From the sequence record MK295204: a DNA stretch of 64,000 nucleotides. One strand, 5' to 3'. The notes beneath the pieces were generated by a model. The model searched no databases, was not told the DNA's origin, and was given only the letters and a program-made list of their open reading frames with translations. Made by a program: the position numbers and the translations under genes. Every line of letters begins with the position of its first letter. Within the stretch, counting starts at the first letter, position 1. Shown one piece after another: positions 53,730 through 62,519 of this stretch. Source of the DNA: Shigella phage vB_SdyM_006.

Positions 53730-56700
53730 ATGACTTTAAATAAATCACTTAAAGCAACGTACGGACTTGATGCCTCTAATGAAAAAGTTATAAATGTCGG
53801 ATTAGCTGACAAAAATACTTTAACAGATGGCGTTAATGTCGAATTTTTAATTCAAGAAAACACAATCCAAGCATACGACAAAAATCGTGGATATGAAAAA
53901 GGCTTTGCTGTTATATTTGAAAATAGAATTTATGTTTCAAATCAAAAAATAGAATCTCCAGCTGGAGATTTTGAGCCTCATAAATGGTTTTCTTTACGTG
54001 TAGACCCTAAATGGGACACGGTATTTGAAACCGTAGCATCAGGTCAAATTATAACATCAGGACAGTTTATTGCAGCTAATACGTCAATAAACGATTTATA
54101 TTTTAAATTGCCTAGAAAACCACAACCAGGTGATACAATTTGTATCAAAGAGGTCTCTGGTAATTCAGGCTATAAGTTCCTTAAAATAGGTAAAACCGAT
54201 AATAATATTTTATGGAACGGAACTAATGTTGAAGAATTATATCTAACACGTCCGTATTCGCAAACTTATTTTATATTTTCTGGGAACGTTTGGAATGTAT
54301 TTCAAATAGAGCACGAAGATATTGGTAGAATAATATCTACTTCACCATTAAAGCAACAAGTTTCTTCTGGAGAGAGATTATATAGATTATCCAATACTGG
54401 TCCTATCAATATCATGTTACCTAAATATGCTATGCATGGTGATGTTATTGAGATGTTTGATATTGATGGATTAACTTCAATAAATCACTTAACTCTTTAC
54501 ACGTCTGAAGGGTCTGGGCATGCTATAGGAACTTTAGGACAATCTAAATTAGAAATAAGAACTATTGGTAACGGGCGATTAGTATTTGATAGTTCTAATA
54601 ATCTATGGAGATTATGGGACGGCGATATAAGAACTCGTTTAAAAACTATCAAAGAAGATCGTAAACTATTACCTAATGAACAGGTTCTTGTCTATGGGAT
54701 GAATAATACAGTTAAAGAAACCGTCACTCTAACGTTACCTAGAAATATTGCTGTCGGTGACACAGTTGAGATTTCTTTAGGTTATATGAGAAAAGGCCAG
54801 ACAGTTATCATAAAGACTGAGGGCGATGATATTATTGGGACTGATAAAACATTATTACAATTCCCTAAACGATCTCAGTATCCGCCTGAAATGACCTGGG
54901 TTGAAGTAAAAGAACTTGTGTTTAATGGTACTGATGATTATTTACCTTATTTAAAATTTGCGTATGTAGAAACATTATCTGATTTAGGGTGGGCAGTTCA
55001 ACATTATCGTCCTAATGTTGAGCGTGTAGATTTTAAAAATCCAGAAAGAATCGGATTGATAGCATTAGCTACTCAAGATCAAGCAAACAAAGATCATGAA
55101 AACAACCCAGAAAAAGAATTGGCTGTAACACCATTTACTTTGGCAAATAGAGTTGCTACAGAAGAACGACGTGGTATTGCTAAAACAGCAAAAACTTCTA
55201 TGGTCAATCAAAACTCAAATGGAAAATTTGAAGATGACACAATTGTCACACCTAAAAAATTAAACGAACGAACAGCTACAGAAGAACGACGTGGCCTAGC
55301 CGAAATTGCTACTCAAGAAGAAACAAATACAGGTAAAGATGATACGACTATTGTTTCTCCATTAAAACTCGAGAACAGGAAAGCCTCAGAAACTTTATCT
55401 GGTATTGCTAAAATAGTCCCATCTAAAGGAACGCCAGGAACACAGCGTGATAAACAAGGAACTGGTGTTTATAATTACACGGATAATAAGACTATTGTTT
55501 CTCCTTCAGCTATACATGAGCTTTTAAGTACAGAAAATTCTCATGGTGTTGTTTATTTAGCTTCTGAAACTGAAGTTATTGAAGCACCAGATATGGACCC
55601 TAAATTTCCTGTTGCTGTAACTCCGGTTCAATTACATAAGAAAACTGCTACAGAAGATAGAATAGGTTTCTCTCAAATCGCTACACAAGAAGAAACTGAT
55701 GAAGGAACTGATAATTTTAAATTTATAACACCTAAAAAATTAAATGATCGAAGATCAACAGAAACTTTAGAAGGTATCTCAAGATACGCTACTTATGAAG
55801 AGTTTAAAAAAGGTGATTCAAATTTAATATCCGAGCCTAATAAAATAAAACAGTTTTTACAAGAAGCAAGAATAAAAGTTGTTCCTGAATCTGGAATAGT
55901 TTTTACTGGTAATATTTGGGACACATGTAATTTTGATATCAAACCTTCAACTGAAGTTGATAGAGGGACATTAAAATTATCAACTCAAGGCCAAGCTAAT
56001 ACTGGTGAAGATGATACAACAGCAATTACACCTAAAAAATTACATAATAAAAAATCAACTGAATTGGTTGAAGGTATAATCCAACTTTCTAATTACGCTG
56101 AAACAATAGCAGGTGATGTTAATAATAAAGCAATATCTCCTCAGAATTTTGTTTTAGCTGTTCAAACAGAAAATAATGGATTAGAAGCCTCTACTTCTTT
56201 ACGTGGATTTGTTAGACTGTTAGATGGTGCTAGTATTTGGCAAGGAACAGATGAATCTGGTAGTGACCCGGATAATGAAGACTTTTTGCATAATGGATAT
56301 GCAGTATCTCCACGAGAATTAAATAAAGCTTTAAGTCATTATCTTCCTATCAAAGGAAAAGCAGTTAACTCTACTTTATTTGATGACTTAAAAACTTCTG
56401 ATTTTATTAGAAGAAACATAGACCAAGAAATTGATGGGGATATGACTTTTAATAACCCAGTTATTCTTAAAGATACATTAGTTTCTACAAGTTCTGGTAA
56501 ATTTGAATCACTAGAAAGTAAAACGGTTTCTGTCGGTGACGGTACTAAAGGTTCAATAAACTTTTTGTCTGCTACACCATGGAAAATTGATGTACAAGAT
56601 GATTTCAAAATTAACAATGTAAAAATTGATAAAGATGAAGTTATCCATTCTAAAGGATTAGAAACAATTTCTCATGTTGACACTTCAGAATATAGATTAA

Positions 56701-57386
56701 ATGGTAAAACATTTATTTCTGGACAAGGTACTATCAATGTAGGTGATGCTGAATCTCAAATTAGATTCCAATCCAAAAATCCTAATGATGTTAGAATTTC
56801 TGGCTCTACAATTATTGTTAATACCAATTTAGAAGAAAAAGGTAATAAGCACTTTATTAATCGTAAACAAGATACCGTTGACGGAGATATTGAATTTACT
56901 AAACCAGTTAAAATCAATATCCAAGAAAATATGGTTGAAGTTTCCGAAGGTATATTTGTTGCCAAAATAACTTCTAAACAAGAATATGAGAAATATCCAG
57001 GTATTGCAGTTCCTAAAATAGACCAAGAAACACAAAAAGTTATTGATTATACTTATGTTAAAGGACCTGGTACACTTACTCAATATGGTGATACTAAATC
57101 TTATACATACAGAATCTGGGCTCCACAAGCTTTAGGTCAAGAAGATAATCATAACAACTATTCATTATGGATGCAGGTTTATAATCCAGTTAAAGGAGAA
57201 TTTGATGCATGGGGTAGAATATACACATCTCAAAATCCACCAACTGCTGCTGAAATAGGAGCTGTGTCTTCATCTGGTTCTACTTTCGAAACACTTAAAG
57301 TTAATCAATGGTTACAAGTTGGACCTGTAAGAATGGTTCCAGACCCAGTAACTAAAACTGTAAGGTATATATGGATCGATGAGTAA
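53730..57386 (+). CDS. 34: long tail fibre proximal subunit
   Basis: 1218 aa; internal repeats of the form ATEERRG-x-A...DDTT-x-TPKKL; first gene of the 34-35-36-37 series. Confidence 0.85.
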   Translation: MTLNKSLKATYGLDASNEKVINVGLADKNTLTDGVNVEFLIQENTIQAYDKNRGYEKGFAVIFENRIYVSNQKIESPAGDFEPHKWFSLRVDPKWDTVFETVASGQIITSGQFIAANTSINDLYFKLPRKPQPGDTICIKEVSGNSGYKFLKIGKTDNNILWNGTNVEELYLTRPYSQTYFIFSGNVWNVFQIEHEDIGRIISTSPLKQQVSSGERLYRLSNTGPINIMLPKYAMHGDVIEMFDIDGLTSINHLTLYTSEGSGHAIGTLGQSKLEIRTIGNGRLVFDSSNNLWRLWDGDIRTRLKTIKEDRKLLPNEQVLVYGMNNTVKETVTLTLPRNIAVGDTVEISLGYMRKGQTVIIKTEGDDIIGTDKTLLQFPKRSQYPPEMTWVEVKELVFNGTDDYLPYLKFAYVETLSDLGWAVQHYRPNVERVDFKNPERIGLIALATQDQANKDHENNPEKELAVTPFTLANRVATEERRGIAKTAKTSMVNQNSNGKFEDDTIVTPKKLNERTATEERRGLAEIATQEETNTGKDDTTIVSPLKLENRKASETLSGIAKIVPSKGTPGTQRDKQGTGVYNYTDNKTIVSPSAIHELLSTENSHGVVYLASETEVIEAPDMDPKFPVAVTPVQLHKKTATEDRIGFSQIATQEETDEGTDNFKFITPKKLNDRRSTETLEGISRYATYEEFKKGDSNLISEPNKIKQFLQEARIKVVPESGIVFTGNIWDTCNFDIKPSTEVDRGTLKLSTQGQANTGEDDTTAITPKKLHNKKSTELVEGIIQLSNYAETIAGDVNNKAISPQNFVLAVQTENNGLEASTSLRGFVRLLDGASIWQGTDESGSDPDNEDFLHNGYAVSPRELNKALSHYLPIKGKAVNSTLFDDLKTSDFIRRNIDQEIDGDMTFNNPVILKDTLVSTSSGKFESLESKTVSVGDGTKGSINFLSATPWKIDVQDDFKINNVKIDKDEVIHSKGLETISHVDTSEYRLNGKTFISGQGTINVGDAESQIRFQSKNPNDVRISGSTIIVNTNLEEKGNKHFINRKQDTVDGDIEFTKPVKINIQENMVEVSEGIFVAKITSKQEYEKYPGIAVPKIDQETQKVIDYTYVKGPGTLTQYGDTKSYTYRIWAPQALGQEDNHNNYSLWMQVYNPVKGEFDAWGRIYTSQNPPTAAEIGAVSSSGSTFETLKVNQWLQVGPVRMVPDPVTKTVRYIWIDE

Positions 57387-58497
57387 TATAATGGTTGAAT
57401 TCGGCCAAGATTATGTAGGTGCTCAAACGTTTGCAGAGAACAATGCACTTACATATAAGTTAACTATTAAGGCTAGTAATAAAAACACACAGGGTGAATC
57501 CTGTGTGTTAATTAACGATAATCAAATAACAACTGAATGCGATACTGGTATTAATGTTTGGGTCATTAATAATATAGGTAAACTTGATAATACTATGTGT
57601 TTTGATGTATCAACAGAATCTGGTATAACAGCATTTATAACATTTTTGAAAGAACAAACTTCTGGAATAATTTGTTTAGCTTCATCTAACGAATTAGATT
57701 CAACTCAAGTCTTAGCTGATTATATGAAATCTATAGGTTCTGCTTCATGGAATAATTTTATGATTTCTAAAATCAAAACAGTGTCTTATGCAGCAGTCTA
57801 TCGTCCAGAATTAAAATCCATTGTTCTGGAATCTATACAATATTCTGATGGAATTAAAGAAGATGAATTACTTGAGTTAGAAACCATTTTTGATTCTAAT
57901 AATTCTATAGGAATAACAGGATTTCCTGGTTCAATCGTATATGATTATAAAGAATACACGTCAATTGAACAAGATTATAAAAAATGGCCTACTAATCTTT
58001 TAAATAACAAGCTTTCTGATTATGGTCTTAAACCTGGCGATTGGGTTTCTTTGAGTGCTTCTATATTTGGAGATAAAGAATTAAAAGATGACGGTGGATG
58101 GACTAGAATAGATTGTAGATGGGTATTTGGTAATGCATGGAAACAATCATTTTATTTAGAAAGTACATTGAAAGGGAATTATCCTGTTCAGTCTATGGTT
58201 AATCCTGGTATCTGGGAATCTAAAACAGTTTATTCTCAAATACCAGAAGGTGTAGATGGATTTGTTATAATAGCTTCAAGATATAATTCAGACTTAGGCC
58301 ATTCTGCTGTAAAAAATGTTGCATTCGGAAGAGCTGCAGAACCTATAATAGAAAAATCTGATAGACAAATAGGTATAAATGGTATTAGAAATTCTTTTGT
58401 AAAAGAGGAAGAACAAAAAGTAGGATCGTTATTAAGTTTGTTAAATCTTAAAGACAAATCCGACACAGTTTCTTCTATAAACTTTAAAGAAATATAG
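57379..58497 (+). CDS. 35: long tail fibre hinge protein
   Basis: 372 aa, same length as T4 gp35; overlaps gp34 stop by 8 nt. Confidence 0.75.
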   Translation: MSNIMVEFGQDYVGAQTFAENNALTYKLTIKASNKNTQGESCVLINDNQITTECDTGINVWVINNIGKLDNTMCFDVSTESGITAFITFLKEQTSGIICLASSNELDSTQVLADYMKSIGSASWNNFMISKIKTVSYAAVYRPELKSIVLESIQYSDGIKEDELLELETIFDSNNSIGITGFPGSIVYDYKEYTSIEQDYKKWPTNLLNNKLSDYGLKPGDWVSLSASIFGDKELKDDGGWTRIDCRWVFGNAWKQSFYLESTLKGNYPVQSMVNPGIWESKTVYSQIPEGVDGFVIIASRYNSDLGHSAVKNVAFGRAAEPIIEKSDRQIGINGIRNSFVKEEEQKVGSLLSLLNLKDKSDTVSSINFKEI

Positions 58498-58634: not shown

Positions 58635-58658
58635 CTGGGAGCTTTGCTCCCAGTTTTC
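58635..58658 (+). terminator. stem-loop inside composite repeat, downstream of gene 35
   Basis: CTGGGAGC-TTT-GCTCCCAG followed by TTTTC. Confidence 0.5.
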
Positions 58659-58675: not shown

Positions 58676-58683
58676 TATAAATA
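58676..58683 (+). promoter_or_regulatory. late promoter TATAAATA for gene 36
   Basis: Exact octamer 20 nt upstream of ATG 58704. Confidence 0.6.
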
Positions 58684-58703: not shown

Positions 58704-59168
58704 ATGGCAGATCTTAAAAGAGGAAGTACTGCTGGAGGAGAATTAATCCTTACACAAGGTAATTTTCCATTAATTCCAGTAGGAAATTCCTTATATTTTA
58801 ATAAGCATAAAGTCTATACCGAACACGATAAGCCTACAGCAGAAGAAGTTGATTCTGTTTCGGCATCTAAAGGTGGAGAATTTAAAGAAAGAGTAATTTT
58901 TAAAGAATTACAGGTAGGGAAACAAGACCCTTTAATTATTAAAGACCATTCTATAGCTGGGACTGAAATAATTCTTAAACAATTAGAAATTAAAAACTTA
59001 GAAAAATCATTACTAGTTCTTAATCCTGATAATCCAGAATTACTTCAAGTTCAATCAATGAAAACAGATAGATTGGTTTTAGACACAATATCAACTCAAC
59101 CTAATCATGCAGTTAGATATGACCAAGTGGTTCTTGTTGGAGATATTATAGATTTTGGAGAATTCTAA
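58704..59168 (+). CDS. 36: long tail fibre distal small subunit
   Basis: Start at ATG 58704 (MADLKRGSTAGGELILTQGNFPL), matching the T4 gp36 N-terminus; AAGGAG SD and TATAAATA late promoter upstream. Confidence 0.85.
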   Translation: MADLKRGSTAGGELILTQGNFPLIPVGNSLYFNKHKVYTEHDKPTAEEVDSVSASKGGEFKERVIFKELQVGKQDPLIIKDHSIAGTEIILKQLEIKNLEKSLLVLNPDNPELLQVQSMKTDRLVLDTISTQPNHAVRYDQVVLVGDIIDFGEF

Positions 59169-61261
59169 TGGCAAAAATTCCAAGAATACAATTTAAAAGA
59201 ACTAAAACACCAGGAACAAAGCCTTCAAAAGATATTTTAGCTGAAGGTGAATTAGCAATTAACTTAGCTGATAGAACTCTTTTTACAAAATCCGGAGATG
59301 ATATTATTGATCTTGGCTTTGCTAAAGGCGGCACAGTTAATGGAGATATTAATCAAGAAGCTGGAAATTTTACAACCAATGGGTCAATGACTGCTAAAAC
59401 ATACATTGATATAAAAAATAGCTTAAATGACAAAAAAATATTTAGGCTTTCTTATGAAGGAGATCGTGGCGCTTTATTGTCTGTTAATGAAGGCGACAAT
59501 AAATGGAAAACTATACTTGTTCCATTAGACGAAGATGGGACTAAAACTATAGCTACTCGTGAACACGTAGGAAAAATGGTTTCTACTAATGATGGAGAAA
59601 CCAAATTAAGGGCTCCAAACCAGACTAACTTATTGATTGCAAAAGACAATAAAGAACTTGTTTGGTACGATGGATCCACTAATAATAGAATGGTTAATTT
59701 TGGTGCAGGTGGTTTAGATTTAGCCCACAAAGGTAGTGATATTGTCGGAGTTAGTTTATACAAAAAAGATGGCAATCAGGTTCGAATAGAAACCCATGCC
59801 CATTCATCGGCCCTTATGTTAGCTTTTGCATATAAAGATTCTGCAGGAAATAATTCATATGTAATCAATATGCCAAAAGAAAATGGTATATTAGCTACAC
59901 AAGGATGGACAGATGCCAAATACTATAAAAGGAATGACAGCCCATCGTTCAAAGAATACGTTAATGTTTTTCATAATACCACAGGGTCTTATACTCAATT
60001 AGGATATGGTAATGCAGGTGCTACATGGTCAGTTAACACAGGCGGCAATTGGTATATATTAAAACATCCCCTAGCTAATGGTACAGTTGCTTCTCAAGAA
60101 TGGAGTCAAGCTACGCATTACAATAAATCAGAATCTGATAATAGATATGTTAAAATTGGTATAGGTGGTGGTTACCCACTACATAATTATAATGCAGGTG
60201 GCCATGGCTATTCTACTTGGAATGAAAAAGGTGTACGTCAAGCTTATATAGGATTCGCAAATGATGGTTCTACAGAATTTACCATTAGTAACGAAAAAGG
60301 ATCTAATAGTACTATTAACCTTAAAGCGGGTAATGTTTTAGTTAATGGTGTAACTATCGCCTCTCAAAACTGGGTAATTTCTAATTTTTATAAAAAAACA
60401 GAAACATATAATAAATCTGAAATTGATGGCAAAGTTAATGGACGATTAACACAGGCCCAAGGTGATGCTAGATATTATACTAAAACCGATTCTGACGGTC
60501 GTTACTTACGAATGAATATCACCAACAAAACTAGTATGCCGGTATTCTATAGAACAGCAAACTATGGAGATGATGCAAACCAACGTGATTTAAATTACGC
60601 AGGATTTTATAGAACTAACGGATTAAACAGCTTACCGAGTCTCATAATTCATGTTCCTCATAGTAGTGGGCTAGCTCATGGAAGAGGTATAGGATTTGAC
60701 TACGGTTCAGCCGGATATGGGATTTATACTTATGCATATGATGCGAATGGAAAATATCAAGGTCAAAAATCTATCGCATTGAGCGAGTATCACTATTCAA
60801 AAACTGTATCAGATGATAGATATTACCAGAAGTCTCAAACATATTCTAGAGCAGAAGTTGATTCTAGAGTAAACGGAAGATTAACTCAAGCCACGGCGGA
60901 TGGAAGATACGCGTATAAAGGTGGTGCTAATGCTCAAAACTTTGGTGCTAACATAGTTGATGCTGCTGACGTTAATATTCGTTCAGATTTAACTGTAAAA
61001 TCAAATTTAGTTAAAATAAATAATGCTATACAAACTGTTAAAACATTAACAGGGTATACATATGATTTAAAATTAAACGATAATACATATAAACAATCTG
61101 CAGGTATAATAGCACAAGATGTACAAAAAGTTCTACCAGCATTAGTTACAGAGGACTCTTTAGGATTATTATCTGTTAATTATAATGGTTTAACTGCAGT
61201 TCTTGTTAATGCTATAAATGAATTATCTGAAAGATTAGAAAGATTAGAACGAGGTGTATAA
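59168..61261 (+). CDS. 37: long tail fibre distal subunit with C-terminal intramolecular chaperone domain
   Basis: 697 aa; N-terminus MAKIPRIQFKRTKT-GT-PS; D-x-RY fibre repeats; C-terminal ~92 aa with SDLTVK Ser-Lys dyad and GIIAQDVQKVLPALV...AINELSERLERLE typical of peptidase S74 chaperone domains. Confidence 0.85.
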   Translation: MAKIPRIQFKRTKTPGTKPSKDILAEGELAINLADRTLFTKSGDDIIDLGFAKGGTVNGDINQEAGNFTTNGSMTAKTYIDIKNSLNDKKIFRLSYEGDRGALLSVNEGDNKWKTILVPLDEDGTKTIATREHVGKMVSTNDGETKLRAPNQTNLLIAKDNKELVWYDGSTNNRMVNFGAGGLDLAHKGSDIVGVSLYKKDGNQVRIETHAHSSALMLAFAYKDSAGNNSYVINMPKENGILATQGWTDAKYYKRNDSPSFKEYVNVFHNTTGSYTQLGYGNAGATWSVNTGGNWYILKHPLANGTVASQEWSQATHYNKSESDNRYVKIGIGGGYPLHNYNAGGHGYSTWNEKGVRQAYIGFANDGSTEFTISNEKGSNSTINLKAGNVLVNGVTIASQNWVISNFYKKTETYNKSEIDGKVNGRLTQAQGDARYYTKTDSDGRYLRMNITNKTSMPVFYRTANYGDDANQRDLNYAGFYRTNGLNSLPSLIIHVPHSSGLAHGRGIGFDYGSAGYGIYTYAYDANGKYQGQKSIALSEYHYSKTVSDDRYYQKSQTYSRAEVDSRVNGRLTQATADGRYAYKGGANAQNFGANIVDAADVNIRSDLTVKSNLVKINNAIQTVKTLTGYTYDLKLNDNTYKQSAGIIAQDVQKVLPALVTEDSLGLLSVNYNGLTAVLVNAINELSERLERLERGV

Positions 61262-61854
61262 TGGCAGTAACAGGACCACGAGTCGGTAGTTCTGCTAAAG
61301 CAGAAACCGGCCTAGCTAGTATGAAGGCCGCCGGCGCTAAATTAGGTTTAAGTGTCCCTTTTAAAATGTCACAAATGATTGGTAAAAGTGTAGCAGTTAA
61401 ATGTATTATGGGTTCAGCACAGAAGCCAGTGTTTAATCAACAAATCTATTTTGTCTATGCATCAAAAGGGGTACTACAAAGTCCGAGAATACCAAGTACA
61501 TTGAACATTGGTGATATACCTGAATCTAACCCGCCATTGAACACTACTTATAAAATTGAAGATGTGGAAGTTATCTCTATATACCGTTCTGATGATGTGG
61601 CTAAAACTAAAAATGAATATGGTTTTGGTATTCAAACAAAAGATTATAAACAACCGTGTAATGAGATAGAAGTTGAAATTAAAGGATATAAAGCTAAATT
61701 GAAATTAGTGTGGCGTGTTGGGGGTTATGCAAAGCCAACATTTTATGTAAGCACTCGTGATGTTGGTAATAACAACTGGCAAGACGTTAGAGATGTTTAT
61801 GATTTCTTACAAGCTGGCAAAGAATACGAATTTATTATTAAAAAGGTGAGTTAA
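61261..61854 (+). CDS. hypothetical protein in the gp38 slot (possible fibre tip or assembly factor)
   Basis: 197 aa; start overlaps gp37 stop (TAATG); lies between gene 37 and holin t where T4 has gp38; no glycine-rich adhesin motifs. Confidence 0.4.
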   Translation: MAVTGPRVGSSAKAETGLASMKAAGAKLGLSVPFKMSQMIGKSVAVKCIMGSAQKPVFNQQIYFVYASKGVLQSPRIPSTLNIGDIPESNPPLNTTYKIEDVEVISIYRSDDVAKTKNEYGFGIQTKDYKQPCNEIEVEIKGYKAKLKLVWRVGGYAKPTFYVSTRDVGNNNWQDVRDVYDFLQAGKEYEFIIKKVS

Positions 61855-61895
61855 CAATATTTTGCGCATAATTTAATTAGTTTAAGAGAACAACT

Positions 61896-62519
61896 ATGGA
61901 TAAAGGCTTTTTTCTAAGCCTGCTTGATACATTGTTTAAAGACGCCGATGGAAAATTAATCCTTTGGCGTCTTCTTTCTATAGGAGTACTTGGGATTGGA
62001 TGTTTTTTATATGTCGCTAGAAATGAATTTTTGGAATTATATAAAAACACTAGATATGAGGCTTATCAACAAGTTCAAAAACAAGAAAGAGAACTTAAAT
62101 TTGAAAAAGCTGTTGTAGACCAATTGCAAATAGTCCATGTATCATCTGAAGCAGAGTTCAGTGGAATAACTGAATTTAGACCTGTAGGATTAAATTATTT
62201 TTTTGATTTAATTGCTTATGAAGGGAAACTTCCTGAGGAATTAAACTCAAAAAATTTAGGAGGCTGGCCTGTAGATAAAACTGCAGAAGAATATATCAAT
62301 CATATGAATGGACATTATTATACATCAACAGAACATTTTAGATTACCAACAAGGACTAAAATAGAAAATAAATGGTTGTTTTCTTGTCCTTATTATAATT
62401 TAAATAATAATTATGCCGGGAGTATATTTATGATGTGGCCTGAAAAACCTGAGATAAATGAAGATAGACTTAATATTATATGTTCTCAGGCTTCCAGGAC
62501 CATAGGTAGGACTAAATAA
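61896..62519 (+). CDS. t: holin (T-type)
   Basis: 207 aa; N-terminal TMD and blocks LQIVH-SSEA-FS, FRP--LNYF-D-IAYEGKLP, CPY-NL-N-YAG-I-M-W match T4 holin T. Confidence 0.9.
   Translation: MDKGFFLSLLDTLFKDADGKLILWRLLSIGVLGIGCFLYVARNEFLELYKNTRYEAYQQVQKQERELKFEKAVVDQLQIVHVSSEAEFSGITEFRPVGLNYFFDLIAYEGKLPEELNSKNLGGWPVDKTAEEYINHMNGHYYTSTEHFRLPTRTKIENKWLFSCPYYNLNNNYAGSIFMMWPEKPEINEDRLNIICSQASRTIGRTK

Follow-up and report, generated by a model that had tools for sequence, protein, structure and literature searches.

A variant of the T2/S16-type fibre tip, with an orphan head on the adhesin and a joint without docking tryptophans, in the long-tail-fibre module of phage vB_SdyM_006

Introduction

In phages T2, T6 and S16 the distal long-tail-fibre protein gp37 undergoes autocleavage at a chaperone domain, and gp38 then caps the fibre (PMC3157838; PMC7917993; bioRxiv 10.64898/2026.05.12.724579). 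The autocleavage site of S16 gp37 is DLNVS^SDRRIKK, and the last 113 residues are released as an intramolecular chaperone (PMC7917993). In S16, three tryptophans of gp38, all highly conserved, insert into hydrophobic pockets at the base of gp37 and so hold the two proteins together (PMC6851490). T4 is the exception among the T-even tips, and its gp38 is a chaperone that is absent from the virion (PMC6851490). Subtypes of the gp37 C-terminus pair with subtypes of the gp38 N-terminus, a relationship described as "lock-and-key" (Trojet et al., PMC3157838). Here we have analysed the corresponding genes of Shigella phage vB_SdyM_006 (MK295204), that is gp37 and the gene for a 197-amino-acid protein that follows it, which lie in the long-tail-fibre module near the end of a stretch of 64,000 nucleotides (the window, to which the coordinates below refer).

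DNA similarity places the window among the Proteus T4-like phages, close to Proteus phage phiP4-3 (Bragavirus, host P. penneri). The stretch from gp37 to the holin gene (59168-62519) has 97.7% DNA identity to phiP4-3 across 78% of its length. An initial annotation had proposed that gp37 ends in a self-cleaving chaperone and is followed by a non-canonical protein in the gp38 slot, giving a receptor-binding tip built differently from those of both T4 and T2. We find here a known system in variant form, with a T2/S16-type tip, an orphan adhesin head and a joint that lacks the docking tryptophans. The features on which the argument depends are these:

59168-61261, plus strand: gp37, 697 amino acids (PHROG 19966, 'long tail fiber protein distal subunit', E 1e-263)
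59168-60982, plus strand: predicted mature part of gp37, amino acids 1-605, 66.5 kDa, with the tip strand ...IVDAADVNIR605 at its distal end
60983-61261, plus strand: predicted intramolecular chaperone of gp37, amino acids 606-697, 10.1 kDa, including the stop codon (Peptidase_S74; alignment with 6F45_A)
61259-61263, plus strand: TAATG, in which the gp37 stop overlaps the adhesin start; GAGGT lies 8 nucleotides upstream
61261-61854, plus strand: adhesin gene, 197 amino acids, with Gp38_N at the N-terminus
61261-61395, plus strand: the adhesin's N-terminal attachment domain, amino acids 1-45 (Gp38_N), with R7, S20 and K35 at the positions of the tryptophan triad
61396-61854, plus strand: C-terminal domain of the adhesin, amino acids 46-197, putative receptor-binding head, including the stop codon; orphan sequence
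61896-62519, plus strand: holin T (Pfam Phage_holin_T, 165 bits), closing the fibre module as in T4 and T2

The predicted masses of full-length gp37 and of the 197-residue protein are 76.5 kDa and 21.8 kDa.

The C-terminal chaperone of gp37

The sequence SDLTVK starts at gp37 amino acid 606, nucleotide 60983, and leaves a C-terminal fragment of 92 amino acids and 10.1 kDa at the extreme end of the fibre protein. Pfam Peptidase_S74 (PF13884) matches amino acids 606-660 with 43.8 bits (E 3.2e-11) against a gathering cut-off of 22 bits, covering model positions 1-57 of 58; no NCBIfam model matches either gp37 or the 197-residue protein. In a phmmer search of the PDB gp37 finds the Salmonella phage S16 gp37 chain 6F45_A with E 8e-14. 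This entry is reportedly the (gp37)3-gp38 complex of the S16 long-tail-fibre tip, from Dunne and colleagues in 2018. In the alignment ...DVNIR-SDLTVK... pairs with ...DLNVS-SDRRIK..., so that the cleavage site and the positions of the serine and lysine coincide. The motif S-D-x-x-x-K reads S606-D-L-T-V-K611 in gp37, with the serine opening the domain and the lysine five residues further on. By homology, autocleavage is predicted between R605 and S606, with S606 and K611 forming the dyad. Thus the S74-type chaperone with a Ser-Lys dyad that had been proposed for the last 92 residues is found exactly where it was placed.

A degenerate relic of the domain that no longer cuts would leave gp37 at full length, with the adhesin bound elsewhere or nowhere. 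We regard this as very unlikely. Each of the five Bragavirus gp37 proteins retains the complete dyad with its SDxxxK spacing, and the S74 scores of phages PM2 and Pm5461 and of a T2-like control (41-49 bits) are in the same range as that of the window gp37. The chaperone sequence is also conserved (~80% at the nucleotide level across the genus) beside hypervariable flanks.

The reported TAATG overlap into the downstream gene is present, and the two frames share a single base in the window and in phiP4-3. This is unlike PM2, Pm5461 and a metagenomic relative (L005, 3501-3520; L006, 3501-3520; L002, 2819-2828), where the gp37 frame enters the adhesin gene by 10-20 nucleotides, and where the chaperone tail therefore ends ...KNGSNRT or ...KKWQ.

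The downstream protein as a probable gp38-type adhesin

The 197-residue protein had been described as free of glycine-rich motifs, and this is so. It contains 8.1% glycine and lacks any GGG run, compared with 23.6% and three long runs in the gp38 of the T2-like phage RB27, and the glycine-rich specificity domain Pfam GP38 (PF05268) is absent at E ≤ 10. What had been missed lies at the N-terminus, where residues 1-40 correspond to Pfam Gp38_N (PF21721) with 57.9 bits against a cut-off of 25 bits. Comparison with eight canonical gp38 proteins by hhalign gives 98.5% probability over residues 1-54. A phmmer search of the PDB with the single 197-residue sequence gave no match, and a seven-sequence profile of the attachment domain was needed to reach the S16 gp38 chain 6F45_D, which it matches with E 1.5e-14. 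As judged from sequence comparison, the protein begins with a canonical gp38 attachment domain, and the description as non-canonical holds for the remainder, a head unrelated to canonical gp38.

The genomic setting is that of a gp38 gene. It lies directly downstream of the chaperone-ended gp37 and upstream of holin t, and the same order is found in RB27, BM7, PM2, Pm5461 and the metagenomic relative. The phiP4-3 orthologue is 99.5% identical and is named "tail fiber adhesin" in RefSeq.

One might suppose instead that the S74 chaperone replaces the gp38/gp57A chaperone system, with the 197-residue protein being unrelated to gp38 and the tip being of a new type unlike those of T4 and T2. The missing PF05268 match and glycine-rich motifs and the failure of the single-sequence PDB search would fit this, but it can scarcely be right given the Gp38_N score, the hhalign probability and the profile match to 6F45_D; moreover the gp37 proteins of RB27 and S16 carry the chaperone domain too, and the literature agrees. 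In the RB27 control gp37 has Peptidase_S74 at 994-1053 (48.6 bits), and gp38 has Gp38_N together with PF05268 (238 bits). A tip type different from that of T2 is refuted by the Gp38_N match and by this control. The contrast with T4 drawn in the initial annotation was correct and is textbook knowledge; that with T2 fails on the pairing of gp37-S74 with gp38 in RB27 and on the published work.

We have surveyed 23 loci with Gp38_N, 17 from a pattern scan of viral contigs and six already in hand. The gp37 upstream of the gp38-type gene carries x^SDxxxK followed by a tail of 92-112 amino acids at 21 of these, and the other two gave no motif read-out. Together with the papers on T2, T6 and S16, the survey therefore makes a chaperone domain followed by gp38 the majority T-even design. 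This design was already understood, and the principal claim of the initial annotation therefore adds nothing new. A metagenomic contig coding for a relative of the window protein (P0002) has the gene order gp36, gp37 (S74), Gp38_N protein, holin. On one viral contig (L015, 1501-1617) the Gp38_N gene has only 38 codons (MAVTGPWVGSS...PFYEII*), and is apparently a decayed or frameshifted adhesin.

The adhesin head

Beyond the attachment domain the resemblance to known adhesins ceases. No relation to canonical gp38 was detected by hhalign past residue ~54, nor to the 175-residue short adhesins of Klebsiella phages past residue 45, and neither Pfam nor PHROG yields a match to the C-terminal 153 residues at E ≤ 10. 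Searching 50,697 phage genomes with residues 61-197 by tblastn found phiP4-3 only. When 1.84 billion representative proteins were scanned exhaustively with HMMER, residues 51-197 had two relatives, the phiP4-3 protein (99% identity) and the metagenomic P0002 (37% identity).

AlphaFold2 was run on the full protein (8 sequences) and on amino acids 44-197 (2 sequences), with a mean predicted local distance difference test score (pLDDT) of ~55 in each. The last ~100 residues have pLDDT 65-83, and both runs place five strands there, then a helix and one last strand; residues 45-95 were not resolved in either. Comparing the head with the PDB by Foldseek, the best match has E 0.08 with template-modelling (TM) scores ≤0.26 (ferredoxin-reductase barrels), which supports no fold call. 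The same is true of the search of BFVD, which returned the phiP4-3 and PM2 adhesins and otherwise weak matches. The head is rare and unclassified; the models suggest a beta-rich domain, for which we do not claim a new fold.

Two relationships considered for the head were set aside. It could have been the canonical central beta-helix of gp38 stripped of its glycine loops, but the hhalign match ends at amino acid 54 and a retained beta-helix is therefore unsupported. The heads of different Bragaviruses could have been remote homologues of one another; hhalign gives 2.6% probability over 24 columns, and such homology is therefore not demonstrable.

Modularity of the tip and shaft

PM2, Pm5461 and the P0002 contig have ~80% nucleotide similarity to the window from 60838 to about 61394. 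This block comprises the last ~50 residues of mature gp37 (tip ANIVDAADVNIR), the chaperone domain and gp38 residues 1-45. Past amino acid 45 of gp38 (61395-61854) the similarity to all three is lost, and it returns at 94% in the holin gene. The heads of the PM2, Pm5461, P0004, P0006 and P0007 proteins (168-188 amino acids) are unrelated in sequence to that of the window. The head variant follows the host, the window head being found in the P. penneri phage phiP4-3 and different heads in the P. mirabilis phages PM2 and Pm5461. A conserved joint beside a variable head is the pattern that would be expected of a specificity determinant, and it agrees with the "lock-and-key" pairing of Trojet et al.

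The shaft of gp37 is mosaic as well. Relative to phiP4-3 the segment 60105-60837 (amino acids ~314-557) has been replaced, between flanks that are 97-98% identical in DNA; overall the two gp37 proteins are 72% identical, with the divergence confined to these residues. The phage is therefore distinct from phiP4-3, and the shaft may hold a second host-range element. A globular-looking module of gp37 (amino acids 437-569, 60476-60874; …FYRTANYGDDANQRDLNYAGFYRTNGLNSLPSLIIHVPHSSGLAHGRGIGFDYGSAGYGIYTYAYD…) closely resembles part of the 1115-residue gp37 of Providencia phage PSTCR6, the nucleotide match being 85.7% over 60491-60875. PSTCR6 gp37 lacks an S74 domain and there is no gp38 gene ahead of the holin in that phage, so that one shaft module serves two tip designs. 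A repeated motif, YNKSEIDGKVNGRLTQAQGDARY and YSRAEVDSRVNGRLTQATADGRY, lies at 60404-60472 and 60839-60907 (amino acids 413-435 and 558-580), on either side of the swapped module, and the repeats are plausible recombination anchors for its exchange.

The joint between gp37 and the adhesin

The positions aligned with the docking tryptophans of S16 gp38 are occupied by R7, S20 and K35 in the 197-residue protein, and every Bragavirus homologue has R/S/K or similar non-aromatic residues there. Most canonical gp38 proteins and Klebsiella short adhesins surveyed have W/W/W. Other replacements of the triad occur in a few T4-like loci (contigs L009, L010, L011 and L017), reading N/S/M, W/S/W, L/W/L and M/W/M, and the gp37 tips at these loci read DVEIR, NVEIR or DVRIR. 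The docking interface of gp38 is more plastic than the S16 structure suggests.

On the gp37 side the strand before the cut is IVDAADVNIR in the Bragaviruses, compared with FVRDVYVR in RB27 and IYCRDLNVS in S16; it has lost the aromatic residues and gained two aspartates. The five Bragavirus gp37 proteins do not differ from one another in this strand. From these alignments we infer that the gp37-gp38 interface of Bragaviruses may have co-evolved to become more polar.

A further proposal, which we put forward tentatively and think more doubtful than not, is that the Bragavirus joint has been re-engineered, with polar or charged contacts of R7 and K35 to D598 and D601 of gp37 taking the place of the tryptophans in their pockets. 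Such a joint would carry interchangeable heads that are not of the polyglycine type, and the window head would be a new fold directed to a surface structure of P. penneri, of a class unlike the porins bound by T2-type gp38.

A model for the fibre tip

Most probably, the phage has a T2/S16-type tip in which gp37 is freed of its own chaperone by self-cleavage, the Gp38_N adhesin docks on it and the C-terminal head of the adhesin binds the receptor. Homology and genomic context suggest how cleavage, docking, stoichiometry and receptor binding would come about. The 697 residues of gp37 would fold and trimerise aided by the C-terminal S74 chaperone (amino acids 606-697). After trimerisation Ser606 with Lys611 would cut between R605 and S606, the 10-kDa chaperone would leave, and the distal face of the trimer formed by the strand ...DAADVNIR605 would be exposed. 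The 197-residue protein, translated from the overlapping TAATG start, would dock on this face through a three-helix N-terminal domain (amino acids 1-45), probably with one copy per gp37 trimer as in S16. It would stay there as the outermost element of the fibre, its C-terminal ~150 residues binding the host receptor through a beta-rich domain in place of the polyglycine sandwich of T2 and S16.

Some points weigh against this model. Both the cleavage of gp37 and the retention of the 197-residue protein in the virion are argued from homology. Since the three docking tryptophans are absent the chemistry of the interface must differ, and docking that is weaker or transient is possible in principle. 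Lastly, with a mosaic gp37 shaft at amino acids ~314-557, part of the host specificity could sit there.

These points touch on another possibility, that the 197-residue protein is a transient assembly factor that does not remain in virions, and that the tip or shaft of processed gp37 itself binds the receptor, as in T5 pb1. The missing tryptophan triad would be in keeping with this, as would the swapped shaft module of amino acids 437-569, shared with a phage that has no gp38, and the GenBank records, where the name given is 'distal long tail fiber assembly catalyst'. We nevertheless think it unlikely. That name is a legacy of T4 and has been applied to true adhesins too. No similarity to T4 gp38 or to Tfa-type chaperone families was found in Pfam at E ≤ 0.1; the protein has no match among the tail-fibre assembly families of Pfam, NCBIfam or PHROG, its sole matches being Gp38_N and adhesin PHROGs. 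In addition mature gp37 shows no variation in its last ~50 residues across Bragaviruses of different hosts and the adhesin's C-terminal part is hypervariable, and a conserved tip with a hypervariable head would be expected of a specificity determinant rather than a chaperone.

The boundary at gp38 residue ~45 is of practical interest. A conserved joint meets a freely exchangeable head there, and among Proteus phages there are at least four or five unrelated heads. Proteus phages are candidates for use against catheter-associated urinary tract infection, and the boundary offers a ready place at which to graft new heads when retargeting them; the heads also supply receptor-binding domains that are as yet uncharacterised. 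With all three docking tryptophans lost, the S16 interface is seen not to be universal, which is relevant to the transplanting of gp38 adhesins between fibres.

Other features of the locus

Upstream of gp37 the module is of the T4 type, with identities assigned by PHROG and Pfam:

53730-57386, plus strand: gp34, part of the T4-type long-tail-fibre module
57379-58497, plus strand: gp35, of the same module
58635-58653, plus strand: terminator-like hairpin between gp35 and gp36, with a stem of 8 bp, 6 of them GC pairs, and a T run after it
58676-58683, plus strand: T4-type late-promoter consensus TATAAATA, 20 nucleotides before the gp36 ATG and 23 nucleotides past the hairpin
58704-59168, plus strand: gp36, long tail fibre distal connector, 154 amino acids (PHROG 1425, E 4e-33), equal in length to that in the phiP4-3 annotation

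In Pm5461 a terminator is annotated at the position equivalent to the hairpin, and a promoter at the same place as the TATAAATA site, which is the single match to the motif within 52-64 kb. A late transcript of g36-g37-g38 would likely start at this site, which is only suggestive because the window as a whole shows no enrichment of the late-promoter motif. Amino acids 57-127 of gp35 have a sub-threshold Pfam match to ILEI (interleukin-like EMT inducer) of 25.8 bits against a cut-off of 27, which may reflect chance or a common small beta-rich domain.

Comparison with known systems

With T4 the locus has in common the gene slots 34-35-36-37-38-t. T4 gp37 differs in that it lacks a chaperone domain and has a receptor-binding needle tip of its own, and T4 gp38 is unrelated to the 197-residue protein. 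The endosialidase endoNF and T5 pb1 have a domain of the same Pfam family (Peptidase_S74), with the same Ser-Lys spacing, and it likewise forms the extreme C-terminal end of a trimeric fibre. In these proteins, unlike the window, cleavage exposes their own functional end and there is no separate capping adhesin.

The 175-residue adhesins of Klebsiella T4-like phages (for example Kpn BM7, Marfavirus; PHROG 1121, 'tail fiber adhesin') are similarly Gp38_N-only proteins with no glycine-rich motifs, lying between an S74-bearing gp37 and the holin. They differ in that homology ends at amino acid 45, most retain the tryptophan triad, and the head belongs to another sequence family. They show how widely the gp38 attachment domain is combined with alternative heads. 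The Bragavirus adhesins of PM2 (168 amino acids) and Pm5461 (171 amino acids), and the metagenomic P0004, P0006 and P0007, have an identical or nearly identical attachment domain and the same gp37 tip, chaperone domain and gene order. It is the C-terminal heads that differ, that of the window being common only to phiP4-3 and P0002.

The likeness to S16 and T2/T6 extends over the whole arrangement. A gp37 with an S74 chaperone and x^SDxxxK is followed by a small protein with a gp38 attachment domain of ~45 residues and then by holin t, and the gp37 tip and gp38 N-terminus co-vary as a cassette. The window adhesin is shorter (197 compared with ~250-260 amino acids) and has neither the central beta-helix nor the polyglycine-sandwich sequence, being 8% glycine compared with ~24%; its docking tryptophans are replaced by arginine, serine and lysine. 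The window chaperone domain is likewise shorter (92 compared with 111-113 amino acids), and the gp37 tip strand is without the aromatic residues of S16 and RB27. The true difference from T2 is confined to the receptor-binding part of the adhesin and to the docking residues.

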